From: Actinomycetes bacterium
GTDB lineage: Bacteria > Actinomycetota > Actinomycetes > S36-B12
DNA: 64,000 bases
Reading direction: 5' to 3'
NCBI GenBank assembly: GCA_037130755.1
Contig: JBAXSI010000001.1
Location: forward strand, 75,156 to 139,155
Both the position numbers and the translations under genes were made by a program. This document shows positions 7,710 to 43,680 of the stretch, one piece after another. Each line of letters starts with the position of its first letter. Positions within the stretch are counted from its first letter, which is position 1. The notes under the pieces are model-generated. The model saw only the letters and a program-made list of their open reading frames with translations. It searched no databases and was not told the origin of the DNA.

Positions 7710-7746
7710 TGCGGCCCGGTCCCAGTCAGCGCGAAATGACCCGCAC

Positions 7747-9276: not shown

Positions 9277-9285
9277 CCTTCCCCC

Positions 9286-9483
9286 ATGCCGCAACGTGAG
9301 TCCGCAGACCATCGCAAGGTCGAGCGCGAGGTTGAGGTCGAGGAGGAGACGGCCGCCATCGTCGACTCGACGCCATCCGAGCTCGACTCCGACGTCGACT
9401 CCATCCTCGACGAGATCGACAGTGTCCTCGAGGAGAACGCTGAGGACTTCGTGAAGTCCTTCGTCCAGAAGGGCGGCCAGTGA
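9286..9483 (+). CDS. pup: Prokaryotic ubiquitin-like protein Pup
   Basis: 65 aa, acidic and disordered-looking, ending FVQKGGQ. Its stop overlaps the prcB start (GTGA). Confidence 0.95.
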
Positions 9484-10316
9484 GCTCACCCCTCGGCCTG
9501 CCGGACCCCTATCGCGCGACCGGGACGGCTTCCTTCGTTGACTTCCTCGCCGCCCTGCATCCGGAGCGCCTGCCTAGGCTCGACGCATCGCCGTCCACGC
9601 CGCTCGCGCCGCATGGCACGACGATCGTCGCCCTGCGCACGGCCGACGGGGCCGTCATGGCAGGGGACCGGCGCGCGACCATGGGGAACCTCATCGCGCA
9701 GAACGACATCGAGAAGGTCTTCGCCGCCGATGAGTACTCGGTCATCGGCATCGCTGGAACCGCCGGCCTGGCGGTCGAGCTGGTCCGGATCTTCCAGGTG
9801 GAACTCGAGCATTACGAGAAGATCGAGGGTGTCTCGCTGTCGATCGAGGGCAAGGCCAACCGGCTGGCGACGATGCTGCGTGGCAATCTGGGCCTGGCCA
9901 TGCAGGGCCTGGCAGTCGTGCCCTTGTTCGCCGGCTACGACGAGTCCCGCGACACCGGGCGGATCTTCTCCTACGACGTCACCGGCGGCCGGTACGAGGA
10001 GCACGACTTCTACGCGGTTGGATCAGGATCCAGCTTCGCGCGCGGATCACTGAAGAAGCTGTTCAGCCGCGATGCGTCCGCGGCCGACGCCGTGCGTGTC
10101 GCGGTCGAGGCCCTGTACGACGCCGCCGACGACGACAGCGCGACCGGCGGTCCCGACATGGCGCGTGGGATCTACCCCGTGGTCGCGGTCGTCGACTCCA
10201 GCGGAGTCCGGATCCTGTCCGACGACGAGCTCGCGCCGGTCGTGCGCACGATGGTCGATGCCCGGGTTGGCCGGCCGGACGGCCCCAGGGCCATGCCTGC
10301 GGGGGAGGCCTCATGA
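9480..10316 (+). CDS. prcB: 20S proteasome beta subunit
   Basis: 278 aa. Propeptide followed by HG/TTIVALR (catalytic Thr1 context). ATGA overlap with prcA. Confidence 0.95.
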
Positions 10317-11005
10317 GCGTGCCGTTCTATGTCTCGCCCGAGCAGATCATGCGCGACAAGGCGGACTTCGCCCGCAAGGGCATCGCCCGCGGCCGCAGCG
10401 TGGTGGTGATGCAGTACGACGGCGGCATCGCCTTCGTCGCCGAGAACCCCTCCCGCGCACTCCACAAGATCAGCGAGCTGTACGACCGCATCGGGTTCGC
10501 CGCCGTGGGCAAGTACAACGAGTTCGAGTCGCTGCGGGTGGCCGGGGTACGCCTCGCTGACATGCGCGGCTACTCCTACGACCGCAGCGACGTGACGGGC
10601 CGCAGCCTTGCGAATGCCTACGCACAGACTCTCGGCACCATCTTCACCGAGACGGCGAAGCCCTTCGAGGTCGAGATCGTGGTGGCCGAGGTGGGCGCGA
10701 GCCCTGCCGACGACCAGCTCTACCGGCTGATGTTCGACGGCTCCGTCGCCGATGAGCACGGCTTCGTCGCGATGGGCGGCCAGGCTGAGCCGATCACCAC
10801 CGGGATGCAGGAGGGCTGGCACGACGGCCTCCATCTCGATCAGGCCGTCAAGCTCGCGCACGGGCTCCTGGAGCAGCACGGTGACGACGGGACTCGCACC
10901 CTGACCGCCGACCACCTGGAGGTGGCGATCCTCGACCGCGCCCGCGCGCGTCGCACCTTCCAGCGCGTCAACAGCGGTCGGCTTGCGGAGCTGCTGGCCG
11001 AGTAA
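10313..11005 (+). CDS. prcA: 20S proteasome alpha subunit
   Basis: 230 aa. [27 protein letters not shown]-terminus is typical of actinobacterial PrcA. Confidence 0.95.
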
Positions 11006-11011
11006 GGCCCT

Positions 11012-11572
11012 TCAGTCCACGGCGTAGTGAAGCAGGGTCACGCCACTGCCGAAGCTGCGCGTGCCCACCAGCCTCAACCTGAGATCGCCGCCTGAGTCGG
11101 AGAACAGGTGCCGTCCGGCCCCGAGCACGACCGGGTGCACGTAGAGGCGGAGTTCGTCGACCAGACCGAGCCGCAGGAAGGTGGCAGCCAGGTCGGCACC
11201 GCCCACGGCGAGGTCGCCGCTGGCGCGCGCACGCAGTTCCTCGACATCCTCGGGCAGCACCTCCCTGACGAGTTCGGCGTGCCACGCCACCGAGTCCAGT
11301 GTCCGCGAGTAGACCACCTTGGGCATGTCGCGCCAGATCCCGGCGAAGTCGACCTCGGCCGGTGTCGCCGTCGGGTCGGCGTCGGCCGTCGGCCAGTAGC
11401 CGGCCATCAGCTCGTACGTCAGGCGCCCGTCAAGGAACGCGCCCATCGGCCGGAGCACGTCGTTGAAGTGCTGGTGCAGCTCCTCGTCGATGGTCTGCCA
11501 GGAAAGGGAGCCATCCGGTCCCTCGAACCGGCCGTCCAGCGACACCGATGCCATGAGGATGATTCGGTTCAC
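11012..11572 (-). CDS. Dihydrofolate-reductase-family protein (RibD C-terminal domain)
   Basis: Only the last 186 codons of ORF 11012..12391 look real (VNRIILMASVSLDGRFEGPDGSLSW ... LRLYVHPVVLGAGRHLF). GTG at 11572; an ATG alternative is at 11554. The upstream part of the ORF is antisense to pafA. Confidence 0.7.
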   Translation of the reverse strand: MNRIILMASVSLDGRFEGPDGSLSWQTIDEELHQHFNDVLRPMGAFLDGRLTYELMAGYWPTADADPTATPAEVDFAGIWRDMPKVVYSRTLDSVAWHAELVREVLPEDVEELRARASGDLAVGGADLAATFLRLGLVDELRLYVHPVVLGAGRHLFSDSGGDLRLRLVGTRSFGSGVTLLHYAVD

Positions 11573-11620
11573 CAAGTCGCCCTTCTGCGCGCATAACGGA
11601 TATCGCCGTACTGTAGAGCC

Positions 11621-12991
11621 GTGGACCGCAGGATCTTCGGCATCGAGACGGAGTATGGGGTCACCTGCACCTTCAACGGCCAGCGCCGCCTGAGTCCGGA
11701 CGAGGTGGCCCGCTACCTCTTTCGCCGGGTCGTGGCGTGGGGCCGCAGCAGCAACGTCTTCCTCACCAACGGCTCGCGGCTGTACCTGGACGTGGGCAGC
11801 CACCCCGAGTACGCCACAGCCGAGTGCGATCAGATCCCGCAGCTGGTCACTCACGACAAGGCAGGGGAGCGGATCCTCGAGGGCCTGGTCACCGATGCCG
11901 AGATGCGATTGCGCGAGGAGGGCATCTTCGGGGACATCTACCTGTTCAAGAACAACACCGACTCGGCCGGCAACTCCTACGGCTGCCATGAGAACTTCCT
12001 TGTGGACCGGCGTGGCGAGTTCGCCCGACTGGCCGAGCGGTTCATCCCGTTCCTGATCTCGCGTCAGCTCATCGCCGGCGCGGGCAAGGTGATGCAGACG
12101 CCGCGGGGCGCCGTGTACTGCCTGAGCCAGCGGGCCGACCACATGTGGGAAGGCGTCTCCAGCGCGACGACGCGATCGCGTCCGATCATCAACACACGCG
12201 ACGAGCCCCATGCCGATGCCGACCTCTACCGCCGACTGCACGTCATCGTTGGTGACAGCAACATGAGCGAGACCACCACACTGCTCAAGGTCGGTTCCGC
12301 GGATCTCGTGCTGCGCATGCTCGAAGCGGGCGTGGTGATGCGCGACATGTCGCTGGAGAACCCCATCCGCGCCATCCGGGAGATGAGTCACGACATCACC
12401 GGCAAGCGGCCGGTGAAGCTCACGACCGGTCGCGAACTCTCAGCGCTTGCGATGCAGTGGGAGTACTTCGAGAAGGCTGCCGATTTCGCCGAGCGGCGCG
12501 GCCTCGTCGACGAGCCGACTGGGGTGACGCGGCGTGTTCTGGAGCTGTGGGGCCGTACGCTGAAGGCCGTCGAGGCCGAGGACACGTCGTTGATCGATCG
12601 CGAGATCGACTGGGCGATCAAGCGTCGCCTGCTGCAGCGATACATGGACAAGCACGACCTGGGCCTCGACTCGGCGCGCATCGCCCAGCTCGATTTGGCG
12701 TACCACGACATCAACCGCCACCGCGGCCTGTACTACATGCTCGAACGCCGTGGCATGGTCGAACGGGTCACAAACGACCTGTCCATCTTCGAGGCGAAGT
12801 CGGTGCCGCCGCAGACCACGCGAGCCAAGCTGCGCGGCGACTTCGTCAGGCGCGCGCAGGAGCGCCGCCGCGACTTCACGGTCGACTGGGTGCACCTGAA
12901 GCTCAACGACCAGGCCCAGCGGACCGTGCTCTGCAAGGACCCATTCGCGAGCGTCGACGAACGCGTCGAACGGCTCATCGCGAGCATGTGA
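11621..12991 (+). CDS. pafA: Pup-protein ligase
   Basis: 456 aa. [13 protein letters not shown] start, paralogous to the Dop ORF but shorter, and in the position downstream of prcA. Confidence 0.9.
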
Positions 12992-13011
12992 CCATCAGTT
13001 AGGCTAGCCGG

Positions 13012-13710
13012 GTGAAGAAGCCCCTGCTCGCGGCCACGGCCGTCGTCCTGATCCTCTCCGTCGCCGCCTGCGGCAAGCAGACCGACGATCGCGTGTCGGG
13101 ATCCTCGGCTCCCGCGGCGTCGGCCCCCGCGGCGTCGGCTCCGGCCGCGTCGGCTCCGGCCGCGTCGGCCCCCGCGGCCTCCGCGCCTGCTGCCTCAGCG
13201 AACCCATCGGCTGTCCAGTCGTCCCTGGCGGCGCTCGCGCCCTTCGTGACCGTGGACTGCACCAGTGGCCAGGTGAGCCCGACCGACCAGCCGTCGCCCA
13301 ACGGGACCACCATCGGCTCGGTCACCGGCGTGATCCAGCCCAACGGGGCCCCGGCAATCACCGTCGCCACCGACGCGGTTCCCGCGACCGAGCTGGGCGT
13401 GGCCGACATGACGGAGGGCAGTGGCGCGGCCGTCAAGGCGGGCGACACCCTCACCGTGAACTACTGCGGCGTAGGCCTCGGTGGCAAGGCCCTCTTCGAC
13501 TCCTCGTACAGCCGCGGCACGCCTGCCACCTTCCCGCTCGACGGCGTCATCGCCGGCTGGCAGCAGGGCCTGGTGGGCATGAAGGAGGGCGGCACCCGCC
13601 TCCTGGTCATCCCGGGCGCACTGGCCTACGGCGCCAACCCGCCCGGCGGCAGCGGCATCCAGCCCGACGAGACGCTGATCTTCATCGTCGAGCTCGCCAA
13701 GATCGGCTAG
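13012..13710 (+). CDS. FKBP-type peptidyl-prolyl isomerase, lipoprotein
   Basis: 232 aa. Signal peptide with lipobox VAAC, an (SAPAA)x6 linker, and a C-terminal FKBP domain (FDSSYSRGTPATFPL, VIAGWQQGLVGMKEGGTR, IPGALAYG). Confidence 0.85.
   Translation: MKKPLLAATAVVLILSVAACGKQTDDRVSGSSAPAASAPAASAPAASAPAASAPAASAPAASANPSAVQSSLAALAPFVTVDCTSGQVSPTDQPSPNGTTIGSVTGVIQPNGAPAITVATDAVPATELGVADMTEGSGAAVKAGDTLTVNYCGVGLGGKALFDSSYSRGTPATFPLDGVIAGWQQGLVGMKEGGTRLLVIPGALAYGANPPGGSGIQPDETLIFIVELAKIG
13105..13194 (+). repeat. Six tandem 15-nt units encoding (SAPAA)6 inside the FKBP lipoprotein gene
   Basis: The peptide SAPAASAPAASAPAASAPAASAPAASAPAA can be read directly. The nucleotide units differ only at wobble positions. 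Confidence 0.8.
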
Positions 13711-13769
13711 ACACCTCGCACGGACCGCAGTTCCCTTCGCTCGTCCACGTCCACTCCCAGGGAGACCGC

Positions 13770-14132
13770 ATGGCAGCCAAGCCGGAGATCGACTTCATCG
13801 AGGGTCCCGCCCCCGACGAGCTGGTCATCACCGATCTCATCGTCGGTGACGGCGCCGAGGCGGTGCCCGGCGGTCGAGTCGAGGTGCACTACGTGGGCGT
13901 CGAGTTCGAGACCGGCGAGCAGTTCGACGCGTCGTGGGATCGCGGCGAGTCGATTACCTTCCCCCTCAACGGGCTCATCGCAGGTTGGCAGGAGGGCATC
14001 CCCGGCATGCGCGTCGGCGGCCGTCGCCAGCTGGTCATCCCCCCGGCACTGGCCTACGGCGAGGCCGGCGGCGGTCACCGGCTGAGCGGACGCACATTGG
14101 TCTTCGTGATCGACCTACTCAACGTCGGATAG
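13770..14132 (+). CDS. FKBP-type peptidyl-prolyl isomerase (cytoplasmic)
   Basis: 120 aa. VHYVGVEFETGEQFDASWDRGESITFPLNGLIAGWQEGIPGMRVGGRR. Confidence 0.9.
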   Translation: MAAKPEIDFIEGPAPDELVITDLIVGDGAEAVPGGRVEVHYVGVEFETGEQFDASWDRGESITFPLNGLIAGWQEGIPGMRVGGRRQLVIPPALAYGEAGGGHRLSGRTLVFVIDLLNVG

Positions 14133-14139
14133 TCAACAG

Positions 14140-15123
14140 ATGACCGAGCGGGTCGATCGCACCGAGCGGCTCCTCAACCTCGTCATCTGCCTGATGGCCA
14201 CGCACGGGACCGTCTCCCGCAGCGACATCCAGCGGCAGATTCCCGGCTACGGCGAATCGGCGTCTCCGACGGCCTTCGAGCGCATGTTCGAGCGCGACAA
14301 GGACGAACTGAGGTCGATGGGCATTCCCATCGAGACCGTGACGGACGCCTCAGGCGAGGTCCAGGGCTACCGCATCCCGCGGGACTCCTACGTGCTGGAG
14401 AACCTCGACTTCACCTTCGAGGAGCGTGCCGCGATCGCGGTTGCGGCACAAGTGTGGGGGACTGCGGCGATCGGCCCTGTCGCTGGTACAGCGGTGCGCA
14501 AGCTCGAGGCCGTGGACTCCGACGGCTGGTCGCCAGCCGCCCTCGCGGGCTCGGTCCAGGTGACCTCGTCCGATGCCGCCCTGCTGCCGTTGATGAGCGC
14601 CATCCGTGCGGACCGCATCGTGACCTTCGCCTACCGCACCCCCGCCGACCCGGAGGCCCGACAGCGTGAGGTCTCGCCATGGGGACTGCGAGCCTCGTCC
14701 GGTCGATGGTTCCTCGTCGGCTTCGACGAGCAGCGTGACGCAGTCCGCACCTTTCGGCTGTCGAGGATCGCCGGCCCCGTCACCGTGACGGCCCGGACGA
14801 GAACCCATCCGCCCGCGCCGGACTTCGACATCGCCACCGTCAATCGACCTGATGACGAGCCCACTGTGACCGCGACCGTCCGTGTTGCGCCCGGCAGGGT
14901 CGCCTCACTCCGACGGATGGCTGCTCCTGGCCCCGAAGGTGCTCCCGCGGATGAGCTCACGATCCAGGCCTCGTCTCGTGACGGCCTCATCTCCCTCATC
15001 TGTGCGGCGGGTGCAGATGCAGTGGCCTTGGCTCCCCAGGAACTCGTGGCCGACGTGGTCGCCTCGCTGGCGGCCGTTCGAGACGCCCATTCGTCAGGCG
15101 CTGCGGACGGGAGAGTCTCATGA
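14140..15123 (+). CDS. pafB: HTH/WYL-domain regulator PafB
   Basis: 327 aa. N-terminal winged HTH (RLLNLVICLMATHGTVSRSDI) and a WYL-like core (RWFLVGFD). ATGA overlap with the paralogous next gene. Confidence 0.85.
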   Translation: MTERVDRTERLLNLVICLMATHGTVSRSDIQRQIPGYGESASPTAFERMFERDKDELRSMGIPIETVTDASGEVQGYRIPRDSYVLENLDFTFEERAAIAVAAQVWGTAAIGPVAGTAVRKLEAVDSDGWSPAALAGSVQVTSSDAALLPLMSAIRADRIVTFAYRTPADPEARQREVSPWGLRASSGRWFLVGFDEQRDAVRTFRLSRIAGPVTVTARTRTHPPAPDFDIATVNRPDDEPTVTATVRVAPGRVASLRRMAAPGPEGAPADELTIQASSRDGLISLICAAGADAVALAPQELVADVVASLAAVRDAHSSGAADGRVS

Positions 15124-16067
15124 CGGCGGCCGACCGGCTAGCCAGGCTCCTGGCCCTCGTGCCCTGGCTGATGGCCCACGACGGGGTCAGCATCACCGAC
15201 TGCGCCGAGCACTTCGGGGTGAGCGAGCAGCAGCTCGAAGTGGACCTGTGGCTGCTGGTCGTCTGCGGCCTGCCCGGATACGGGCCCGACCAACTCGTCG
15301 ATATCGACTTCTGGGAAGACGGCCGCATCCACGTGCTCGATCCGCAGACTCTGGCGCGGCCGCTGCGACTGACGAGCGAGGAGGCGACGACGCTGCTGAT
15401 CGCCCTTCGGATGCTGGCGCAGCTGCCGGGAGTGCAGGATCGCGCAGCCGTCCTGTCCGCCGCCGCGAAGCTCGAGGAGGCCGCGAACCTCGCTGCGGCC
15501 GGTCGGTACGTCGCCATCGACGTCGGGGTGGCACCCGAGGTGCGCGAGGCCGTCGACGCCGCCCTGCGCGACCATCGCCAGATCACGATCGAATACGCAG
15601 CTGCCACCCGCGACGAGGTGACCACCCGGACCGTCGAGCCGCGCCGGCTGTTCACGGTCGACGGCGTGAGCTACCTCGAGGCCCACTGCCTGTCAGCCGG
15701 AGCCCTACGGACGTTCCGGCTCGATCGAGTCGTTCAGGCCGTCGTCGGCGAGGCCTTCGAGCCTGCCCCAACGGAGCCGGGCCCTAAGTCGGACTCAGGT
15801 GAACCTCAGGGACCGCGGCCACCGGCGCGAACGGCCACGCTGCTTCTGGAGCCCTCGGCCCGATGGATCATCGACGTTCACCAGGCCGCCGAGGACCCCG
15901 CCCCACGGCCAGATGAGCGCACACAGGTGACTTTGCCCCTGCATTCGGACGACTGGGCGGTCCGGCTGGTGCTGTCCCTTCGCGGGGCGGCCACCGTCAT
16001 CGAGCCGCCGGAACTGCGGGCGGCCGTGCAGGAGGCGTCCACGCGGGCTTGGGCGGCGTACCCTTAA
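15120..16067 (+). CDS. pafC: HTH/WYL-domain regulator PafC
   Basis: 315 aa, paralogous to PafB (RLLALVPWLMAHDGVSITD; VSYLEAHC). Conserved position before tatA. Confidence 0.85.
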   Translation: MTAADRLARLLALVPWLMAHDGVSITDCAEHFGVSEQQLEVDLWLLVVCGLPGYGPDQLVDIDFWEDGRIHVLDPQTLARPLRLTSEEATTLLIALRMLAQLPGVQDRAAVLSAAAKLEEAANLAAAGRYVAIDVGVAPEVREAVDAALRDHRQITIEYAAATRDEVTTRTVEPRRLFTVDGVSYLEAHCLSAGALRTFRLDRVVQAVVGEAFEPAPTEPGPKSDSGEPQGPRPPARTATLLLEPSARWIIDVHQAAEDPAPRPDERTQVTLPLHSDDWAVRLVLSLRGAATVIEPPELRAAVQEASTRAWAAYP

Positions 16068-32927: not shown

Positions 32928-34358
<1,431 letters not shown>

Positions 34359-34416: not shown

Positions 34417-35295
34417 CTAGTTGGTGTCGCAGGCGTTGGCCCAGATGCCGGCAGGCACCGGGGAGTCAGCCGGCCGCTGGTCCGGATGCCCGCTGACCGG
34501 TGTGCCGCACACCTGGCTGCGGTTCTTGGGAATCCAGAACTGGCCTTCCGCCTCGAAGACGTCGGTCACGCCGATGTCGTGGCCCTTGCCGTCACCGATT
34601 GTCGCGAAGGCGTACGCCCAGCCGCTGTCGCATTGGAACTTGTCGACCGAGACGAGGACCTCAGCCTTGGGCAGCCCGGCCGCGATGACGTCGCTGAAGC
34701 CCGTCTGCGTGCAGGTAGCGGTGCCGCCGATCACCGAGGGGGCCGCAACGGGCTTCATCGACTTCGCGACCTTCAGCAGCGCCGCGAAGCTCAACGGCTT
34801 CGACCCGAACGTCTGCAGTACGACATCGGTCGAGCGCAGCTTGCCGTAGGCAGGCAGGCGCACGGACAGGGCGCCGCCGTACTTGGCCATGTCATTGCGC
34901 GAGCAGTTCTTCGACTGGGTCGCATTCGACAGGTCGCAGAAGACCGTGACGTGCGCCTTGGCGCCGAGCACCGAGACCGTGCCCAACGACTTCCCCGCGC
35001 CCACCGGATCGCTGCAGATGGGCCGGCCCTCGACGATGTCCAGAGGCGTGGTCCGCTGCCTGCCGTAGGCAGCGACCATGTTCTGCTCCGTGCCGACCGG
35101 GCATGCGGACTGGCTTCCGGTTCGGGTCAGCTTGAGCCCGGCGGTGTACAGCGGTTGATAGACCGTGTAGGTGACGCCCACCTGGAGATCCTCATACGGG
35201 TTGCCAGAGCCCATGGCGTGCGCCGGTGCGCCCGGCACCAAGCCGATCGATGAACCAAGGACCACTGCCATTGCCAGCCGCAGAATGGTGCGCAT
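34417..35295 (-). CDS. Secreted Cys-rich protein of unrecognised family
   Basis: Start placed at MRTILRLAMAVVLGSSIGLVPGAPAHA (ATG 35295). Signal peptide and 10 Cys in the mature part. I can name no family motif. Confidence 0.6.
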   Translation of the reverse strand: MRTILRLAMAVVLGSSIGLVPGAPAHAMGSGNPYEDLQVGVTYTVYQPLYTAGLKLTRTGSQSACPVGTEQNMVAAYGRQRTTPLDIVEGRPICSDPVGAGKSLGTVSVLGAKAHVTVFCDLSNATQSKNCSRNDMAKYGGALSVRLPAYGKLRSTDVVLQTFGSKPLSFAALLKVAKSMKPVAAPSVIGGTATCTQTGFSDVIAAGLPKAEVLVSVDKFQCDSGWAYAFATIGDGKGHDIGVTDVFEAEGQFWIPKNRSQVCGTPVSGHPDQRPADSPVPAGIWANACDTN

Positions 35296-35367
35296 CAGAC
35301 CTCCAGAATCGTCCCCCTGCGGGAATGCTCGCATGGCTGCGCGGGGGAGTCGCGCTGTTGGTCGGGC

Positions 35368-35628: not shown

Positions 35629-36498
35629 ATGAGCAACGCAAAGACCCGACTCCGCGTCCTGGCCTCCGCAGCCTCCATCGCCGCCGCAGCCACACTCGTG
35701 GCACCGAGCGCCGCCCGTGCGGAGACCGTGTACACCTTCGCCGACGTACAGAAGCACGCGACACAGCAGGACTGCTGGTCGATCGTCAATGGCGGCGTCT
35801 ACAACCTGACGAACTTCATCCCGCGGCACGAGGGTGGATCCAAAGTGATCATCGCCATGTGCGGCATCGACGGCAGCTCGTCCTACAACGGTCGGCACGG
35901 CCGCAGCCAAGGCGAGGAGAACGAACCCGCGCGGGCGTTGGCGCAATACCGGATCGGCGTGCTGGACCCGAGTTCCGTCCCGTCCGCCACGACGAACTAC
36001 ACGATGACGCAGGTCGCCGCCCACAACTCCGCTGGCGACTGCTGGTCGGTTGTCAGCGGCAAGGTCTACAACCTGACCGCCTGGATTCCCAAGCATATTG
36101 GTGGGCCCGGTGTGATCACGTCCATGTGCGGCATCGACGGCACGAGCCTGTACAACAGCAAGCATCAGGGCTCTGCGAGCGCCGCCGGTGCGCTTGCCAA
36201 CTACGTGATCGGAACCCTCAGCGGTTCGTCGACGGCGACCCCGTCCACCCCCACCGCCCCCAAGAAGACCTACACGATGAAGCAGGTCAAGAAGCACCGC
36301 TCGGCGACCGACTGCTGGACCGTCGTCAACAAGGGCGTCTACAACGTGACCGCGTGGATCCCCAAGCACCCGGGCGGCTCAGCAGTGGTCGTCTCCATGT
36401 GCGGCAAGAAGGCAACGGCCCTGTACAAGACCCAACATGCGGGGGATGCCGCCGCGGCGAGCGTTCTCAAGGGCTACCGGATCGGACGAATCGCCTAA
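35629..36498 (+). CDS. Exported protein with three cytochrome b5-like heme-binding modules
   Basis: Start placed at MSNAKTRLRVLASAASIAAAATLVAPSAARA (ATG 35629). Three modules carry DCW...VYNLT..IP.H(E/I/P)GG...MCG.(D/K)(G/A)...(N/K)..H..., the HPGG-type plus second-His signature of the b5 fold. Confidence 0.85.
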   Translation: MSNAKTRLRVLASAASIAAAATLVAPSAARAETVYTFADVQKHATQQDCWSIVNGGVYNLTNFIPRHEGGSKVIIAMCGIDGSSSYNGRHGRSQGEENEPARALAQYRIGVLDPSSVPSATTNYTMTQVAAHNSAGDCWSVVSGKVYNLTAWIPKHIGGPGVITSMCGIDGTSLYNSKHQGSASAAGALANYVIGTLSGSSTATPSTPTAPKKTYTMKQVKKHRSATDCWTVVNKGVYNVTAWIPKHPGGSAVVVSMCGKKATALYKTQHAGDAAAASVLKGYRIGRIA

Positions 36499-36546
36499 TT
36501 GGCCTAGCGTTACAACATATGCAGGATCGTCTGGTTTGATCTGCCC

Positions 36547-37695
36547 GTGAACACCACAGCCACGATCGTGACCTCCGTCCTTGCAGACAACCCGTTCTTC
36601 CTGATCACCGGGCTGCCGGTGCACACGCTCATCGTGCACTTCGCGGTGTCGATGATTCCGCTGTCGGCCATCGCGCTGATCGCGATCGTCCTGGTCCCGA
36701 AGTGGCGCGGGGCCTTCTTGTGGGCCACGCTCATCGGCCTCACCATCGGGACCGGGGCGGCCTTCATCTCCAAGCTGTCCGGACAGGCACTAGCTGCCGT
36801 GGTCGGTGTTTCCCAGACGCATTCCAAGTGGGGCGACATCCTGCCTTGGCTCTCGCTGCTCTTGCTCGTCGTCGCGCTCATGTGGGCATGGGTCTCGCGG
36901 CATGCCGCGAAGCAGGATCCCGCACCGACGATCTCGCTGGGCAAAGGCCCGCAGCTGGCCTTGGGGCTCATCGCCATCGTGCTTTCCGTCGCAGCATTCG
37001 CACTGACGGTCGTCGTCGGCCACACCGGCGCAGGCGCCGTCTGGGAGTCGCGCAGCCTCGACACCGAGAACACCGAGGACACCTCCACCGCACCCTCGTC
37101 GAGCGCCGTTCCGGCGCCCTCGTCCTCCGCCGGCGCGGCTGGCGGCCTCACCCTGGCGGACGTGAAGGCGCACTCGACTCCGCAGGACTGCTGGAGCCTG
37201 GTCAGCGGCCAGGTCTACGACCTCACCTCATGGATCTCCCAGCACCCGGGCGGCCCCGGCGTCATCGAGGCCATGTGCGGCAAGGACGGCACGGCGGCGT
37301 ACGAGGGCAAGCACGGCGGCTCGGCCAGCGCCGGCGCCGCTCTCGCCGGGCTGGCGGTCACCCCGGCTGGTGGGGGAGCGGCCTCGGCTGCCCCGGCCAG
37401 CTCGGCCGCCGCGGTCGCCTCAACGGCGCCGGCAGCCTCTGCTGCTGCCACGGGTGCCGCTGCCGCGATCACGATTGCCGAAGTGGAGAAGCACGCCACA
37501 CCGCAGGACTGCTGGTCGGTTGTCGACGGCTTGGTCTACGACCTCACCCCGTGGATCCCGCAGCATCCGGGCGGCCCCGGCGTCATCGAGGCCATGTGCG
37601 GCGTCGACGGAACCTCCCTGTACAACAGTCAGCACGGCGGCTCGCCGCAGGTCGCGAGCCTCCTGCCGACGTTCGAGGTCGGAACCCTCGGCTGA
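36547..37695 (+). CDS. Membrane protein: 4-TM His-containing (DUF2231-like) anchor fused to two cytochrome b5-like modules
   Basis: 382 aa, GTG start. Four hydrophobic helices in the first 165 aa, Ala/Ser linkers, then two modules (WISQHPGGPGVIEAMCGKDG...GKHGG; WIPQHPGGPGVIEAMCGVDG...SQHGG). Confidence 0.85.
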   Translation: MNTTATIVTSVLADNPFFLITGLPVHTLIVHFAVSMIPLSAIALIAIVLVPKWRGAFLWATLIGLTIGTGAAFISKLSGQALAAVVGVSQTHSKWGDILPWLSLLLLVVALMWAWVSRHAAKQDPAPTISLGKGPQLALGLIAIVLSVAAFALTVVVGHTGAGAVWESRSLDTENTEDTSTAPSSSAVPAPSSSAGAAGGLTLADVKAHSTPQDCWSLVSGQVYDLTSWISQHPGGPGVIEAMCGKDGTAAYEGKHGGSASAGAALAGLAVTPAGGGAASAAPASSAAAVASTAPAASAAATGAAAAITIAEVEKHATPQDCWSVVDGLVYDLTPWIPQHPGGPGVIEAMCGVDGTSLYNSQHGGSPQVASLLPTFEVGTLG

Positions 37696-37726
37696 GCCCG
37701 GTGGATCGGCGCGGTCCACTACGCCC

Positions 37727-37803
37727 TACCGGAAACCGGCATTGGGGATGTACCGGGATATTCCCCTCAGGAATCTCTGCATACCGGGCATACGATTTAC
37801 CGG
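37727..37803 (+). repeat. Four TACCGG direct repeats in the leader of the 8-module gene
   Basis: TACCGG at 37727, 37751, 37782 and 37798 (contexts cTACCGGAAA, gTACCGGGAT, aTACCGGGCA, tTACCGGAAT), in a locally lower-GC intergenic stretch. Function unknown. Confidence 0.5.
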
Positions 37804-37930
37804 AATCTTGGATTCCTCAGACATCGCCCTTGGGCGCCCCTACCTAGGTTGACGGGGACTGATGTTGTCCGTCGTTCGCTCGCGCGCCTGCGGGGGAGCG
37901 GGCGGATCGGGTCACGAGGCTAGGGGCGCA

Positions 37931-40258
37931 ATGAATCTGTTCCAGACGGGGTTGGGGCGCGTTGTCATGGGTGCGGCGCTGCCGCTGGCCGTGATCGCTG
38001 GGGTCATGACCGCATCCGCATCGTCGGCCGCGACGCCGACGCTCTCGGCACCCAAACCGACCATTGCGCGTTCGGCCGTGGGAAGCTACACCCTGGCGCA
38101 GGTGGCCCAGCACGGCACTGAGCGCGACTGCTGGTCGGCCATCAACGGCAGCGTCTACAACCTCACCGCGTTCATTGCTCGGCACGAGGGTGGTGCAGCG
38201 CCCATCATCGGGCTGTGTGGAATCGACGGCTCGGGCATGTTCAACGGCCAGCATGGCAGCCAAAGCCTGCCGAACTCGACCCTCACGCAGTACCGAATCG
38301 GCGCCCTGAACGCGACGCTGCCGCCGGTACCGGCAACCACCTACACGTTCGCCCAGGTCCAGACGCACAGCACCGCGGCGAGCTGTTGGTCAGTGGTCGG
38401 GACGACCGTCTACGACCTCACCTCGTGGATTCCCAAGCATCCCGGCGGCACTGCGGTGATCACCGCGATGTGCGGCAACGACGGCTCTGCCAGCTTCAAC
38501 GGCAAGCACGGCAGCACGTCGGCTGCACCCTCAACGTCGGCGCAGAACCAGTTGGCGCAGTTCTCCATCGGCAGCCTCAGTGGCACGACCGGTGGCGGCA
38601 CCGCGGGCGGAGGAACCACACCGACTCCGAACACCACCGCGACGTACACGTTCGCGCAGGTTCAAGGACACGCGACGTCAGCCAGTTGCTGGACCGTGAT
38701 CGGCACGAAGGTCTACGACCTCACACTGTGGATTCCGAAGCATCCCGGCGGAACTACCCAGATCGTTGCACTGTGCGGGCTCGATGGGTCCGCCAGCTTC
38801 AACGGCAAGCACGGCAGTGCCTCACCCACTCCGTCTGCGACGGCCCAGGCCGCCTTGGTCCCGCACCAGATCGGCGTACTTACCGGCACCACGGCGCCGG
38901 CCGCCACAGGCACATACACACTCGTGCAGGTCAAGACGCACAACACTCAGTCCAACTGCTGGTCAGCAATCCTTGGCAGCGTGTACAACCTGACGACGTG
39001 GATCCCACAGCACCCGGGTGGCACCTCGCAGATCATCGCGCTCTGCGGCACCGAAGGATCCGTAGCCTTCTGGGGCAAGCACGGTGCCAGCAGCACAGCG
39101 CAAGCCGCTCTCGCAGGTTTCAAGATCGGCACCCAGAGCGACTACGTGCCCGTGGCACTACCCACGCCCGCTGTGACACCGTCCGTTCCTGCGATCACCA
39201 TCCACGGTGACTACACGATGGAAGAGGTGTCGAAGCACAGCACGGCCGCGGACTGCTGGTCCGTGATCAGTGGTGGCATTTACGGCCTCAGCACGTGGAT
39301 TCCCGTCCACCCCGGCGGCGCGGGCGTCATCACCCCGATGTGCGGACAGGACGGCTCGGCGGCCTACAACGGCAAGCATGGATCCGACGGTGTAGCAGGC
39401 TCGCAGCTGGCCAAGCTCCGCATCGGCAGCGTCGTCGGGGCCACCGGTGTCGTCCTGAAGAACTTCACGATCGAAGACGTTGCAGCGCACAAGTCGCCCA
39501 CCGACTGCTGGTCGGCTGTAAACGATGGCGTCTTCGACCTCACCAAGTGGATCCCGCAGCATCCTGGTGGTCCCGCGGTGATCCAGGCGATGTGCGGCAT
39601 CGACGGCTCTGCCGCCTTCACCGCCAAGCACGGCGGCAACGCTGGTGCGGCCGCGGCGCTCAAGTCGTACCGGATCGGCACCCTCGTGGTGAAGCAGCAG
39701 GCCGCGACTCCGGCGAGCACCAAGTCGGGCAAGGTGTACACCGTCAAGCAGGTCCGCCGCAACCACTTCGCCACCCGGTGCCTGACAGTTGCCAACCGGA
39801 ACGTGTACAACCTGACCCACTGGACCGTCCGGCACCGGACGCACGTGGCGTTCATCAGGTCCGTGTGCGGCCGGAACAGCACCCGTATGTACAACAAACT
39901 CTCGGGAGGACCGGCCAAGACGACGGCGAAGCTGAAGCCGTTCTGGGTCGGAACGATGGTCTCCGCGACGGCGCCAGCGGCAGTTGCCCCGGCCCCCGCT
40001 GCAGCTCCCGCCCCGAGCACCAATGCCAAGTACACGGCGGCGCAGGTGAAGGGACATTCTGCCCCGACCGACTGCTGGTCGATCGTCAGCGGCGGCGTCT
40101 ACAACCTCACCGCCTGGGTGGGCGTCCATCCGGGCGGCCCGGCCGTCATCAGATCCATGTGCGGCAGCGACGGCACCGCGGCCTTCACCAGCATGCATTC
40201 GGCCAGCGCCTCTGCCAAGGCTGCCCTCGCCACGATGCAGATTGGCGTGGTCGGTTAG
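37931..40258 (+). CDS. Exported protein with eight tandem cytochrome b5-like modules (seventh degenerate)
   Basis: Start placed at MNLFQTGLGRVVMGAALPLAVIAGVMTASASS (ATG 37931; the ORF opens at 37862). Modules begin near ORF residues 76, 161, 262, 352, 451, 535, 626 and 724. Seven keep H(P/E)GG plus the second His. Confidence 0.85.
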   Translation: MNLFQTGLGRVVMGAALPLAVIAGVMTASASSAATPTLSAPKPTIARSAVGSYTLAQVAQHGTERDCWSAINGSVYNLTAFIARHEGGAAPIIGLCGIDGSGMFNGQHGSQSLPNSTLTQYRIGALNATLPPVPATTYTFAQVQTHSTAASCWSVVGTTVYDLTSWIPKHPGGTAVITAMCGNDGSASFNGKHGSTSAAPSTSAQNQLAQFSIGSLSGTTGGGTAGGGTTPTPNTTATYTFAQVQGHATSASCWTVIGTKVYDLTLWIPKHPGGTTQIVALCGLDGSASFNGKHGSASPTPSATAQAALVPHQIGVLTGTTAPAATGTYTLVQVKTHNTQSNCWSAILGSVYNLTTWIPQHPGGTSQIIALCGTEGSVAFWGKHGASSTAQAALAGFKIGTQSDYVPVALPTPAVTPSVPAITIHGDYTMEEVSKHSTAADCWSVISGGIYGLSTWIPVHPGGAGVITPMCGQDGSAAYNGKHGSDGVAGSQLAKLRIGSVVGATGVVLKNFTIEDVAAHKSPTDCWSAVNDGVFDLTKWIPQHPGGPAVIQAMCGIDGSAAFTAKHGGNAGAAAALKSYRIGTLVVKQQAATPASTKSGKVYTVKQVRRNHFATRCLTVANRNVYNLTHWTVRHRTHVAFIRSVCGRNSTRMYNKLSGGPAKTTAKLKPFWVGTMVSATAPAAVAPAPAAAPAPSTNAKYTAAQVKGHSAPTDCWSIVSGGVYNLTAWVGVHPGGPAVIRSMCGSDGTAAFTSMHSASASAKAALATMQIGVVG

Positions 40259-40405
40259 CCCTGAACGGTCCCGACGCAGTCCTGCCGGGCCGATAACACC
40301 AGATGAACAGGGGAGCAGGCCTGCCCGTGGGCATGTGAACCTTGGACCGACGAGAGCGACGGCACGCCAGTGCCGCCGCCGAAGACACGACGAAAGTGAG
40401 AGCAC

Positions 40406-40756
40406 ATGAGCTCGCGCAAGACAGTGACCCGAATCCTCGCGACGGGTGCGGCCCTGCCGATCGCCCTCGCCGCCGTTCTCGCCGCGCCTGCCGCGAGTGC
40501 CGCGACTGACACCAGCAAGCCCTCCGCCAAGTACACGATGGCGCAGGTCAAGAAGCACAACAAGGCCACTGACTGCTGGTCGGTCGTCGGCAAGAACGTG
40601 TACAAGATCACCGCATGGATCCCCAAGCACCCGGGCGGCCCCGCCCTGGTCGTCTCCATGTGCGGCAAGAACGGCACCGCGCTGTACAACAGCAAGCATG
40701 GTGCCGACCCGATCTCCAAGGGCATCCTCGCCAAGTACAAGATCGGCACCCTCTAG
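40406..40756 (+). CDS. Exported single-module cytochrome b5-like protein
   Basis: 116 aa. Signal peptide ...LAAPAASA, then YTMAQVKKHNKATDCWSVVGKNVYKITAWIPKHPGGPALVVSMCGKNGTALYNSKHGADP...YKIGTL. Confidence 0.85.
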   Translation: MSSRKTVTRILATGAALPIALAAVLAAPAASAATDTSKPSAKYTMAQVKKHNKATDCWSVVGKNVYKITAWIPKHPGGPALVVSMCGKNGTALYNSKHGADPISKGILAKYKIGTL

Positions 40757-40765
40757 ACAACAGCC

Positions 40766-40802
40766 GATGGGCCGGGCACCGCACACGCGGGCCCGGCCCA
40801 TC
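40766..40802 (+). terminator. Perfect 12-bp-stem hairpin closing the b5 gene cluster
   Basis: GATGGGCCGGGC (40766..40777), a 13-nt loop, then GCCCGGCCCATC (40791..40802). It starts 10 nt after the stop codon. Confidence 0.6.
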
Positions 40803-40850
40803 GCCGTCTCCGCTCCCATGACGCCAGCCGAACCCATCTAGGCTTCCCAC

Positions 40851-41606
40851 ATGACGATTCCGAGCCTGAAAGACCGATGGGGGAGCAGCCCCGCTCTCGG
40901 CGCCTGGATGTTCCTGCGTGAGCCCATGACGGCCGAGGCTGCAGCCCGGGCGGGCTACGACTACGTCGTTGTCGACATGCAGCACGGGATCGCCTCGGAG
41001 TCGGAGATGCTGGCGATGATCCAGGCCGTCGAGGCGGCCGGTTCCATCCCTGTGGTGCGCGTGGCACACAACGACGCGACCTCGATCGGGCGGGCCCTCG
41101 ACGCCGGCGCACTGGCGGTCATCGTCCCGATGGTCAACGACGCCGAGTCGGCCGCTCGGGCAGTGGCCGCCTGCCGCTACGCACCCGAGGGATCACGCAG
41201 TTACGGGCCGGTCGCGGCCATTAGTCGCTACAGCGATGACTACGCGCGCGTCGCCAACCAGACGGTCGCCTGCATCGTCATGATCGAGACCAAGGAGGCC
41301 GTCGAGGACATCGAGGACATCCTCGCCGTTCCGGGCATCGACGGCGTCTATGTGGGGCCTGTCGATCTGTCCTTGACTCTGGGGCTGCCCCCTGGCACCG
41401 ACCACGACGATGCCCGATTCATTGACGCCATCCGACGCATCGTCGAGGCCTGCGGGCGCCACGGCATCGTGCCCGGCATCCACGCCGATGCCAGCCTCGC
41501 CGCCAAGTGGCGTGCTGCCGGGTTCCGACTGATCACCGTCGGGTACGACCAATTCGCCGTGCTCAGCGGCCTGCGAGCAGACCTGGCCCAGGCACGAAAT
41601 CCCTAG
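40851..41606 (+). CDS. HpcH/HpaI-family aldolase
   Basis: 251 aa. GYDYVVVDMQHG, VVRVAHND, ALAVIVPMVN and RYAPEGSRSYGP are typical of class II 2-keto-3-deoxy-acid aldolases. Confidence 0.8.
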   Translation: MTIPSLKDRWGSSPALGAWMFLREPMTAEAAARAGYDYVVVDMQHGIASESEMLAMIQAVEAAGSIPVVRVAHNDATSIGRALDAGALAVIVPMVNDAESAARAVAACRYAPEGSRSYGPVAAISRYSDDYARVANQTVACIVMIETKEAVEDIEDILAVPGIDGVYVGPVDLSLTLGLPPGTDHDDARFIDAIRRIVEACGRHGIVPGIHADASLAAKWRAAGFRLITVGYDQFAVLSGLRADLAQARNP

Positions 41607-41645: not shown

Positions 41646-42185
41646 GTGCTTGGGGAACACAACACGGGGTGGCTGCGGCTTGTGCGCGGCCTGGTATTGG
41701 GGATGTGCGTACTCGCCATCTCCGTCGCCGGTCATGCTGCCGGCGGGCAGGGGAGCCTTCCTGACATCGTCTCCCTGCTCGTCCTGCTCCCGATCGCCAT
41801 CGCCCTGAGCGTGACCTTGACCGACCGCCGCAGGGGAGTGGCCTGGCTGCTGGGCTACCTGCTCGCGGTGCAGGCCCTCTTCCACGTCCTGCTCACCCTG
41901 TCCACCGGCCACGCGGGTGCGCATCAAGGCTTCACCCCGACCATGTCCATGCTCGCGCTGCATCTTCTGGCGACCTTGGCGTCTGCCGTCGTACTGACCC
42001 GCGGTGATGCCCACCTCGTTGCCTGGCTTCGGTTCCTCAACAGCCTTGGCCGCAGCTATGCCGTCGAAGTCTGGACGCCGAAGTGGGTCACTGTCGCGGT
42101 GGCGATCGCCGACCAGGCGCCACGGATGCGGCGCGTCGCGACCCAGCCGTGGCAGCACCGGGGACCACCCGCACTGTCGATCTGA
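41646..42185 (+). CDS. Four-TM His-rich membrane protein of unrecognised family
   Basis: 179 aa, GTG start. Hydrophobic helices with GHAAGG, ALFHVLLTLSTGHAGAH and ALHLLATL. Directly upstream of the ycnI-like gene. Confidence 0.55.
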   Translation: MLGEHNTGWLRLVRGLVLGMCVLAISVAGHAAGGQGSLPDIVSLLVLLPIAIALSVTLTDRRRGVAWLLGYLLAVQALFHVLLTLSTGHAGAHQGFTPTMSMLALHLLATLASAVVLTRGDAHLVAWLRFLNSLGRSYAVEVWTPKWVTVAVAIADQAPRMRRVATQPWQHRGPPALSI

Positions 42186-42289
42186 TTCTCGCCGCCATCG
42201 GCGGCCCCTCTCCTGCGTCCTGAAGACGCGGAATCCGACGCCCACTGGCGTCTCAGACGACAACTCACATTCCAACGAAAGGCTTCATC

Positions 42290-43021
42290 ATGCATGCATT
42301 CACGAATGTCCTGATCCGCTCGGTTCTCGCCGGTGCCGTCGCCACCGCGGGCGCCGTCGCCATCGCCGCCCCGGCCAGCGCGCACGTCGGAGTCGATCTC
42401 CACGGCGCCACCGCGACCGCCGGCAGCAGCACGGCCGTATTCCTGCGGCCAGGACACGGCTGCGACGGGGACGCCACGAACGCCGTCACCGTCACCATTC
42501 CCGATGGCGCCACCAACGCCAAGGCCCAGCCGAAGGCCGGCTGGAAGCTCACCTCCGATGGCAAGACGATCACCTGGTCAGGCGGCAGCCTGCCCGATGA
42601 TCAGTTCGACGACTTCGGCATTCGACTGTCGTGGCCGAAGGCCGCCGTCGGCTCGGCTCCGCAGAAGTACTACTTCAAGACCGTCCAGACCTGCAACGCC
42701 GAGATCAAGGTCACCCGGAAGGGCGCGAACGCGACGGTGACCGGCTACCTGCCGGCGTACGCCGGCCAGCAGGTGTCGCTCGACGTCAACGACATCCCGT
42801 TGACGGCACGGCCGGTGACGGTCGGGGAGACCGGCTCCATCCTTGTGGATACCACGTCGGCGAAGGTGCCCGCGGACGCGGACGTGACCGCACGCGTCGG
42901 GACGCGGACCGTGGGCAACTCCGTTGCCGCCGTGGAGGCCTGGGTCAACGTGCCGGGAGACGGATCTGACCAGCAGAGCCCGGCTCCGTCGGTGACCGTC
43001 GTCGCCCCGACAGCTGGCTGA
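42290..43021 (+). CDS. YcnI-like (DUF1775) copper-binding protein
   Basis: 243 aa. The signal peptide ends ...APASA and the mature protein starts HVGVDLHG. It also has GWK...TWSGG...FDDFG...YYFKTVQTC ... PAPSVTVV. Confidence 0.75.
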   Translation: MHAFTNVLIRSVLAGAVATAGAVAIAAPASAHVGVDLHGATATAGSSTAVFLRPGHGCDGDATNAVTVTIPDGATNAKAQPKAGWKLTSDGKTITWSGGSLPDDQFDDFGIRLSWPKAAVGSAPQKYYFKTVQTCNAEIKVTRKGANATVTGYLPAYAGQQVSLDVNDIPLTARPVTVGETGSILVDTTSAKVPADADVTARVGTRTVGNSVAAVEAWVNVPGDGSDQQSPAPSVTVVAPTAG

Positions 43022-43680
43022 TGATCAAACGGGCCTTCGCGGTCGCGGTGCTGGGCTCACTGATCCTCCTGGTGAGCCCAGCGCCGGCGTTCGCGCACGC
43101 AGAACTCCTGCGCAGCAACCCGCGGAACGGATCCGTCGTGGCCGCCTCGCCGAGGACGATCACCCTGACGTTCGGCGAGGGCGTCACGATGGCCCAGACG
43201 GCACCACAGCTCACCGATGCCTCGGGTGCGGTCATACCCGTCGCGGCCGACCTGCGTGGGCCCAGCCTGGACATCACGCCGTCCCGGACCCTGCGTCGCG
43301 GACCTGCCACGGTGACCTACCACGTGCTCTCCGAAGACGGGCACGAAGTCGCGGGGGCCGTGACCTTCGTCGTGCGAGACGCTGGGCCACGCGGATCTGC
43401 CGTAGCGATCTCGACCACCCCAGCGGTACCCACGACGCTCAACGGTCGACGACCGGGCCAGTTGACGGTCTCACTGGCGAGACCGTCAACCTCCGGGCAG
43501 GTGGTCTGGACGTCAACGAACCTCGCCGAGCCGATCACGTGGCGCGTGACCTCGGACGGCAACTCGTCGGTCGCCACCGGGGTGCTGCCGCGCTCTGGGC
43601 CGTGGCAGATGGCTGCGACCCTGCAGGGCAAGGGCTTCACGGTGCTCGTGGTCCGCGGAAGCGTCACCTTGAGCCCCTGA
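43021..43680 (+). CDS. CopC-domain protein with extra C-terminal domain
   Basis: 219 aa. The signal peptide ends ...PAFA and the mature protein starts HAELLRSNPRNGSVV. YHVLSEDGHEVAG is typical of CopC. The start overlaps the ycnI-like stop (TGATG). Confidence 0.8.
   Translation: MIKRAFAVAVLGSLILLVSPAPAFAHAELLRSNPRNGSVVAASPRTITLTFGEGVTMAQTAPQLTDASGAVIPVAADLRGPSLDITPSRTLRRGPATVTYHVLSEDGHEVAGAVTFVVRDAGPRGSAVAISTTPAVPTTLNGRRPGQLTVSLARPSTSGQVVWTSTNLAEPITWRVTSDGNSSVATGVLPRSGPWQMAATLQGKGFTVLVVRGSVTLSP

Follow-up and report, generated by a model that had tools for sequence, protein, structure and literature searches.

What is the role, in an actinobacterium, of four adjacent genes that together encode 14 exported cytochrome b5-like modules? 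The question is raised by a 64,000-nt stretch of DNA (the window; JBAXSI010000001.1 of assembly GCA_037130755.1, positions 75,156-139,155) from an uncultured high-GC actinobacterium (S36-B12), in which the genes, termed A, B, C and D, lie side by side on the plus strand. An earlier reading of the sequence alone (the sequence-only reading) had proposed either an extracytoplasmic heme-b relay or a heme capture system. The conservation of the heme ligands and the location of the modules outside the cell are supported by our analysis; of the two roles, the relay is favored. With a probability of about one half, we read the cluster as a cell-envelope heme-b electron relay built from b5 modules of the cytochrome b558 type.

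Heme ligands and fold of the modules

The open reading frames of four adjacent plus-strand genes were confirmed, with gaps of 48 bp (A-B), 235 bp (B-C) and 147 bp (C-D), as the sequence-only reading had described them. Pfam returned PF00173 (Cyt-b5) stretches three times in A (E = 4.6e-51), twice in B (1.9e-35), eight times in C (5.7e-121) and once in D (4.2e-14), where each E-value applies to the whole protein. The claimed number of 3 + 2 + 8 + 1 = 14 modules and the b5 layout of their motif were thereby borne out. NCBIfam models matched none of the four proteins. The modules align across ~74 residues with pairwise identities of 26-69%, and in C they are joined by linkers of 10-25 aa rich in T, P, A and G.

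The axial His pair, formed by the His of the H-x-G-G motif and a later His, is the feature that separates b5 cytochromes from the MAPR/steroid-binding branch. It is intact in 13 of the 14 modules, the same count as first proposed, which places these on the cytochrome side. The exception is module C7, where HRTH and KLSG stand at the ligand sites and the second His is gone. Two Cys residues are found in every module (6 in A, 4 in B, 16 in C and 2 in D), and the CXXCH motif for heme c attachment was found in none of the four proteins, again in line with the earlier claim.

The ligand pair aligns with the heme ligands in flavocytochrome b2 and b5 structures. AlphaFold modeled the b5 domains of B with a predicted local distance difference test (pLDDT) score of ~90, and Foldseek superimposed them on rat cytochrome b5 with a template modeling (TM) score of 0.88 and a root mean square deviation of 1.4 Å. 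In the PDB, the module profile found its best match in the cytochrome b558 of Ectothiorhodospira vacuolata (1cxy, E = 1.8e-20). Both Cys positions of the module (DCW... and ...CG) align with the two cysteines of 1cxy. Cytochrome b558, described in 1999, is said to be periplasmic, to carry a signal peptide and to be disulfide-bonded.

These residues are retained well outside the window. The Cys pair occupies the b558 positions in 14/14 window modules, in 112/112 modules of C orthologues and in 118/121 modules fused to DUF2231, the membrane domain of B. Both axial His residues are present in 98/101 ordinary modules of C-type orthologues (40-64% identity to C) and in 117/121 DUF2231-fused modules; of the four others, three are visibly truncated and one degenerate. 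The bis-His ligands are under strong purifying selection. Recent tandem duplication was ruled out as the origin of the modules, since their identity reaches only 26-69% and they are orthologous by position across genomes. The modules are very probably exported, disulfide-type cytochrome b5 modules binding heme b via two His residues. Heme would occupy the intact sites, and the Cys pair would close a disulfide bond.

Export and membrane topology

Signal peptides were read by hand from the n-region, the hydrophobic core and the AxA site. Proteins A, C and D each begin with a short positive stretch and a hydrophobic core, followed by an AxA site (ARA↓E, ASA↓S and ASA↓A, respectively), and these segments were read as Sec-type leaders. 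In orthologues, the mature protein begins precisely at module 1 (AQA↓ET). Inspection of the A, C and D sequences found no twin-Arg motif, lipobox, LPXTG or C-terminal anchor, and Tat export, lipoprotein anchoring and sortase anchoring were rejected for these proteins.

The topology of B was derived from Lys plus Arg (K+R) and Asp plus Glu (D+E) counts across 22 DUF2231 family members, using the positive-inside rule. The mean K+R and D+E values were 0.09 and 1.9 in the N-terminal segment, 2.5 and 0.05 in loop 1-2, 2.6 and 3.9 in loop 2-3, and 3.4 and 0.95 in loop 3-4. Because the rule puts both termini outside, B is predicted to be N-out/C-out, with its b5 modules facing outward. Two independent observations agree with an outside location of the modules: C has relatives with fused FN3, PKD and peptidoglycan-binding domains, and the module profile best matches 1cxy, with an aligned Cys pair, a protein that is itself reportedly exported. 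The sequence-only reading had placed all modules outside the membrane, behind three Sec-type signal peptides and one anchor with four transmembrane (4-TM) helices. The hand-read leaders, the four long helices modeled for B and its predicted topology are consistent with this view.

Exported b5 arrays also occur in fusion with FN3, PKD, SH3 and peptidoglycan-binding domains, in proteins of up to 1173 aa (P0017-P0025, P0058, P0063-P0065; L004 18754-22104; P and L numbers designate proteins and loci of the analysis). Uncultured bacteria may thus have a larger set of wall-associated b5 proteins.

The DUF2231 domain and its histidine cluster

The 4-TM anchor of B (aa 22-168) corresponds to Pfam DUF2231 (PF09990, E = 6.4e-12). 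Modeled alone with AlphaFold, it yielded a confident four-helix bundle (pLDDT 87, predicted TM score (pTM) 0.81). Four His residues are invariant among 18 DUF2231-b5 proteins. The start of helix 1 carries H26 and H31 in the motif G-L-P-x-H-x-L-x-V-H, that of helix 3 carries H92 in P-x-x-H-x-x-x-G, and the end of helix 4 carries H159 in V-G-H-x-G-A-x-x-x-W. H26, H31 and H92 stay invariant in 96 stand-alone DUF2231 relatives; H159 of DUF2231 is nearly invariant. Because the N-out/C-out topology puts all four residues at the outer helix ends, they are predicted to form one site at the outer membrane face rather than two transmembrane sites. The hallmarks of a transmembrane di-heme b cytochrome (b561, NOX or MsrQ-like) were not found: there was no significant structural match, and the His residues do not lie at both faces. 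Kinship of DUF2231 with cytochrome b561 or NOX5 is not supported, the Foldseek E-values of ~0.4-0.6 being treated as noise.

A HMMER search gave 2527 representative clusters of this DUF2231 subfamily, and most of the best 150 of these are stand-alone proteins of 150-190 aa. Cyt-b5 is fused in 15 of 22 longer relatives. A profile search with the 96 stand-alone proteins returned only further stand-alone proteins, and the literature searched contained nothing on DUF2231 function. The domain may harbor a redox cofactor and be coupled to quinol. In Micromonospora and Actinoplanes, stand-alone DUF2231 is divergent from an adjoining FUR-family regulator gene (L088 4398-5483; L089 4402-5474; L090). 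This neighbor hints at metal or peroxide control; it scores under all Fur, PerR and Zur equivalog cut-offs.

Module order and charge pattern

The module order of C is kept among orthologues at 40-64% identity, and it can be followed by HEGG in the first module, W-G-K-H in the fourth, the GTQSDYVP linker and M-H-S in the last. The penultimate module of C orthologues is always strongly basic (+12 to +17), with both His residues present in only 3/11; in one C subclade, the last module takes the basic, degenerate part instead. By its sequence, C7 is a candidate for a heme-free docking or anchoring module.

Net charges are conserved in the other proteins as well. In the multi-gene loci, they range from -3 to -10 for the DUF2231-anchored modules, from +8 to +11 for the D proteins, which have intact ligands, and from +6 to +11 for the last or penultimate module of the A proteins. 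C1-C6 and C8 count as neutral. One rule covers every multi-gene locus: a secreted protein contains a single strongly basic module, and the membrane-anchored protein is acidic. In textbook b5 electron transfer, an acidic b5 and a basic partner come together by electrostatic attraction. The acidic and basic modules of this cluster may dock on each other in the same manner. A poly-Glu/Asp C-terminal tail (e.g., AQGEEEEED) was seen in 25 of 85 fusions from other lineages, many of them freshwater (among P0032-P0059). B of the window has no such tail, but its modules are unusually acidic.

Recurrence in other genomes

The genome search for co-occurrence that the sequence-only reading had proposed recovered the full A-B-C-D cluster from two other uncultured actinobacterial genomes. 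The first is the metagenome-assembled genome (MAG) MFD02134.bin.2.74 (L001/L008), where the cluster lies on a 1.99-Mb contig between the argininosuccinate synthase (ArgG) and aldolase genes; B is 68% and C 83% identical to the window proteins. The second, metagenome contig L091, carries A(4)-B(2)-C(8)-D(1), with module numbers in parentheses, after CorA and ArgG, and its C is 64% identical. Partial sets lie on about eight further contigs, among them C(8)-B(2)-D(1) on metagenome contig L002, B-C(8) on genome-collection contig L053, C-D on metagenome contigs L003 and L092, A-B on metagenome contigs L093 and L094, and C(8) next to a six-module b5/FN3 protein on metagenome contig L004. Several uncultured Actinomycetota therefore share the architecture, which is not confined to the genome studied. 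In the closest MAG, the C orthologue (L001 10001-12091) is split into three overlapping frames with 5, 2 and 2 module matches, owing either to frameshift errors of the long-read assembly or to decay of the gene.

For a census of B relatives, one genome per species was scanned for two DUF2231 motifs. This gave 384 confirmed relatives, and the best 80 of these all consist of DUF2231 with one, two or three b5 modules, so that such fusions exist in at least 80 actinobacterial species genomes. The MAGs among these best 80 are labeled Rhodoluna, Aquiluna, Nanopelagicales, Propionibacteriaceae, Tetrasphaera/Phosphoribacter, Micropruina and Kocuria. MAGs labeled Planktophila and Nanopelagicus are also among the carriers, as is the isolate Tessaracoccus defluvii with a single-module gene. 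The DUF2231-b5 gene mostly stands alone. The single fusion is widespread, and the multi-gene array is a rarer elaboration in a few lineages.

Locus, putative promoter region and neighboring genes

The cluster sits between the genes for ArgG and an HpcH/HpaI aldolase (Table 1), on an actinobacterial chromosome with a window GC content of ~0.68.

Table 1. Coordinates of the b5 cluster and its flanking genes in the window.
Feature	Position	Strand	Remarks
ArgG	32928-34355	-	argininosuccinate synthase
Gene A	35629-36498	+	289 aa, secreted; 3 b5 modules
Leader of A	aa 1-31		Sec-type, cleavage ARA↓E
Module A1	35731-35964	+	
Module A2	35998-36219	+	
Module A3	36271-36492	+	strongly basic (+10)
Gene B	36547-37695	+	382 aa, membrane protein; DUF2231 + 2 acidic b5 modules
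DUF2231 domain of B	36610-37050	+	aa 22-168, N-terminal, four-helix
Module B1	37147-37368	+	acidic (-3)
Module B2	37468-37689	+	acidic (-7)
B-C intergenic region	37696-37930	+	conserved footprint at 37783-37861
Gene C	37931-40258	+	775 aa, secreted; Sec-type leader (ASA↓S); 8 b5 modules
Module C1	38087-38308	+	
Module C2	38342-38578	+	
Module C3	38645-38881	+	
Module C4	38915-39136	+	
Module C5	39212-39433	+	
Module C6	39464-39685	+	
Module C7	39737-39958	+	ligands degenerate (HRTH / KLSG), both Cys present, net charge +14
Module C8	40031-40252	+	
Gene D	40406-40756	+	116 aa, secreted; Sec-type leader (ASA↓A); one module, 40532-40753, +9, ligands intact
HpcH/HpaI aldolase	40851-41606		

Upstream of C, a footprint reading TTACC..A.TCT.GG.TT.CTCAG is followed ~20 nt on by CCTAGGTTGAC with a -35-like TTGAC. 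It is conserved in three genomes (the window, L001 9630-9708 and L091 ~8600-8680). The same intergenic region of the window also holds four TACCGG motifs and the palindrome GGAATC-TTG-GATTCC. As judged from these motifs, the region is likely to contain a separate, regulated promoter for gene C, and the footprint is a candidate operator. The strong closing hairpin noted earlier was recovered by folding at 40765-40803, directly 3' of the D stop codon (-40.4 kcal/mol, z = -6.7 vs shuffles). This GC-rich hairpin is likely a transcription terminator without a U-tract.

The rest of the window is core chromosome, with MetH, a Pup-proteasome cluster, TatC, HelY, Lnt, RbpA, CorA, ArgG, GcvP and GcvH. 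The Pup-proteasome cluster (6048-16067) is complete, with the Mpa/ARC ATPase, Dop, PrcB, PrcA, PafA, two FKBP isomerases and PafB/PafC, and downstream of it lie TatC, a PAS-GGDEF protein and HelY. Genes for the synthesis and import of heme, for heme oxygenase and for cytochrome c maturation are missing from the window, as are Eet/Fmn/Dmk genes. Neither the window nor the related loci yielded a heme ABC importer, a heme oxygenase, a NEAT domain or a sortase signal, and no desaturase or P450 partner lies near the cluster. Clustering of the neighbors in 84 loci brought up only synteny within lineages (27 loci share an ABC-F ATPase) and antisense artefacts.

Divergent from A lies a gene for a 305-aa secreted, Cys-containing protein (34417-35334, minus strand) without a Pfam or NCBIfam match; a 67%-identical orthologue stands at the same position in L091, and none is present in L001. 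On the other side of the cluster (41646-43680, plus strand), a 179-aa membrane protein without a family match is followed by YcnI (DUF1775) and CopC, and the window contains no CopD. L001 has a counterpart of this membrane protein after its aldolase gene, but without the copper genes. A copper link was rejected as a defining feature: YcnI-CopC is found here and two CopC near the L004 gene, but none in L001, L002, L003 or L091. Genes of the BtuF/hemin-binding-like type (Peripla_BP_2), a 76% identical pair, occur 0.4 kb downstream of the b5 cluster in L091 (11874-12641) and 3 kb downstream in L001 (15864-16694). A link to a heme- or B12-binding protein was considered as well, but the BtuF-like gene lacks a signal peptide and a transporter partner and has no counterpart in the window. 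It is one of three weak leads from the gene context, beside the copper genes and the FUR-family neighbor of stand-alone DUF2231.

The proposed electron relay and its alternatives

The relay would work as follows. B would be held in the membrane by its DUF2231 bundle, whose outer-face His cluster probably holds a heme or metal center, and this center would exchange electrons with the menaquinone pool. B would display its two acidic b5 modules outside the cell. A (three hemes), C (seven hemes and one heme-free basic module) and D (one heme) would each contribute one strongly basic module for electrostatic docking, either to the acidic modules of B or to anionic polymers of the wall. Electrons would then hop between linker-joined b5 modules through the wall, with the eight-module C extending the chain, to or from a terminal partner. 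We infer both the direction of flow and this partner, which could be Fe(III) or Cu(II) reduced for uptake, a humic substance or mineral, superoxide, or a secreted redox enzyme. It is possible, if doubtful in so specific a form, that Actinomycetota possess an extracytoplasmic multi-heme pathway made wholly of non-covalent b5 modules, with no need for cytochrome c maturation, in which DUF2231 would be a membrane redox module not recognized before, acting as quinol:b5 oxidoreductase, a C7-type module would serve docking or anchoring, and C would span the wall.

We favor the relay because the bis-His ligands are conserved, the closest solved relative is cytochrome b558, the acidic and basic modules are conserved, DUF2231 has an invariant His cluster, and a heme importer, heme oxygenase or NEAT-type features are lacking. 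Several points weigh against it. Flexible linkers separate the modules into individual domains, which do not make up a stiff, tightly packed heme wire. Being without a covalent anchor, A, C and D could be lost by diffusion. The DUF2231 His residues are confined to one membrane face, so the domain alone cannot move electrons across the membrane, and its model found no significant Foldseek match in the PDB (best E = 0.37). Heme outside a monoderm cell requires heme export, and no such system was identified here. Neighbor clustering of the 84 loci yielded no conserved functional partner, and no terminal reductase or oxidase is encoded near the cluster. Many DUF2231-b5 carriers are labeled as freshwater planktonic genera, including Nanopelagicales, and respiratory extracellular electron transfer (EET) would be unexpected in freshwater planktonic, heme-auxotrophic lineages. 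Heme auxotrophy has been reported for the acI / Nanopelagicales lineage (bioRxiv 10.1101/2021.01.11.426183).

The same proteins could instead serve heme capture, buffering or storage, the secreted b5 proteins acting as hemophores or a heme sponge that would bind free heme from the environment and pass it to the His cluster of the anchored B and on to an importer encoded elsewhere. We regard this as unlikely, although the lack of a cell-wall anchor in A, C and D would suit such a role, and the combination of secreted multi-domain and single-domain proteins resembles that reportedly formed by the NEAT hemophores IsdX2 and IsdX1. The reported heme auxotrophy of acI, set beside the DUF2231-b5 genes of MAGs labeled Nanopelagicales, Planktophila and Nanopelagicus, points in the same direction, as do the FUR-family regulator divergent from stand-alone DUF2231 in Micromonospora and Actinoplanes and the BtuF/hemin-binding-like gene downstream of the cluster in L091 and L001. 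The regulator, however, falls under all Fur, PerR and Zur cut-offs, the BtuF-like protein of L091 and L001 lacks a signal peptide and has no counterpart in the window, and a heme ABC permease/ATPase, heme oxygenase, NEAT, HtaA or HasA was found neither in the window nor in the related loci. Six-coordinate b5 sites with bis-His ligation belong to the classical electron carriers; the scavenging domains known so far bind heme by Tyr or mixed ligation. Simple heme binding also leaves the conserved heme-free module and the acidic/basic design unexplained.

Surface heme-based redox or gas sensing, with signaling of the external redox state to a regulator such as a two-component system in place of a metabolic electron flux, we consider improbable. 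A response regulator and histidine kinase lie directly upstream of the multi-b5 gene in L003, such a pair adjoins stand-alone DUF2231 in L007, and gene C has its own conserved operator-like footprint. Thirteen heme sites over four proteins would nevertheless be excessive for a sensor, the b5 and DUF2231 proteins examined have no fused kinase or transducer domain, and a two-component system is missing from the window, L001, L002 and L091. The conservation of C7 despite its ligand loss, together with the FN3, PKD and peptidoglycan-binding fusions of relatives, could also be taken to mean that the b5-like fold is a structural, adhesive or small-ligand repeat of non-redox wall proteins, comparable to the steroid-binding MAPR branch. 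We give this very little credence, as the retention of both His residues in 98/101 and 117/121 ordinary modules across 35-64% identity is explained by heme ligation only. A cytoplasmic b5 of lipid metabolism, for which just the generic COG-type database name ('cytochrome b involved in lipid metabolism') speaks, is scarcely credible, being contradicted by the signal peptides, the N-out/C-out anchor, the Cys pair common to cytochrome b558 and the lack of a nearby desaturase or P450 partner.

Comparison with known systems

Cytochrome b558 (1cxy) shares the b5 fold and Cys residues at the same two positions with the modules, and it is said to be exported. It is a single soluble domain of unassigned function from a Gram-negative phototroph, whereas 14 modules are encoded here by four genes of an actinobacterium. 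Of the four proteins, only D matches b558 in having a single domain; there are three modules in A, two in the membrane-anchored B and eight in C. Further differences from b558 are the DUF2231 fusion, the one basic module without heme and the conservation of the charges.

Multiheme c-type conduits (MtrCAB and OmcS of Gram-negatives and the Gram-positive Thermincola OcwA, PMC6703420) resemble the cluster in having many hemes per polypeptide outside the membrane, clustered genes and a chain reach that is plausibly wall-spanning. They are not homologous to it, and the cluster has neither CXXCH nor covalent heme. Its globular domains are set on flexible linkers instead of being close-packed, without a porin partner or dependence on cytochrome c maturation. 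The NEAT-based Isd systems of Firmicutes (IsdX1/IsdX2, IsdB/H/C) likewise consist of secreted or surface proteins with repeated heme modules and genes side by side. Their fold is different, with no PF05031 match in A-D, and their heme ligand is Tyr as compared with the bis-His pair here. The cluster moreover has no sortase signal and no nearby IsdDEF/HmuTUV-type importer or heme oxygenase.

In the flavin-based EET of Listeria (Ndh2/EetA/EetB, PplA), also a Gram-positive system, a small membrane component feeds a surface protein with repeated redox modules that are loaded non-covalently or post-translationally. The cofactor there is flavin mononucleotide and would be heme b here; there is no homology, and the window has no Eet/Fmn/Dmk genes. 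MsrQ/YedZ and cytochrome b561/CybB are, like DUF2231, small helical membrane proteins with conserved His residues and an outside redox partner. Homology is unsupported (Foldseek E 0.4-0.6), and DUF2231 differs by its four helices with His residues at one face.

The module type itself is not without precedent: 1cxy is the solved structure of a bacterial b5 that is reportedly exported, and the b5 family, including this single-domain member, was known before. The sequence-only reading had claimed that no characterized system has this architecture, and none was found in the literature searched. The same literature contained no description of the multi-gene, multi-module array, the DUF2231 fusion, the heme-free basic module or the charge design. 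In databases, the proteins are named 'hypothetical' or carry the generic lipid-metabolism name given above.

Implications

To our knowledge, the well-studied bacterial routes for electrons beyond the membrane all use covalent heme c, flavins or pili, and exported b-type cytochromes are rare curiosities. If true, the relay would represent a new design principle, in which modular b5 beads dock electrostatically, and a b-type analogue of the multiheme cytochrome c conduits. Heme capture, if that were true, would amount to a new hemophore type, with relevance to the heme auxotrophy of abundant freshwater lineages. A conserved surface system would provide a first way into the function of DUF2231, whose members number in the thousands. 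The relay, if confirmed, would bear on how small-genome actinobacteria of soil, wetland and freshwater deal with iron, copper, reactive oxygen species and external electron acceptors.

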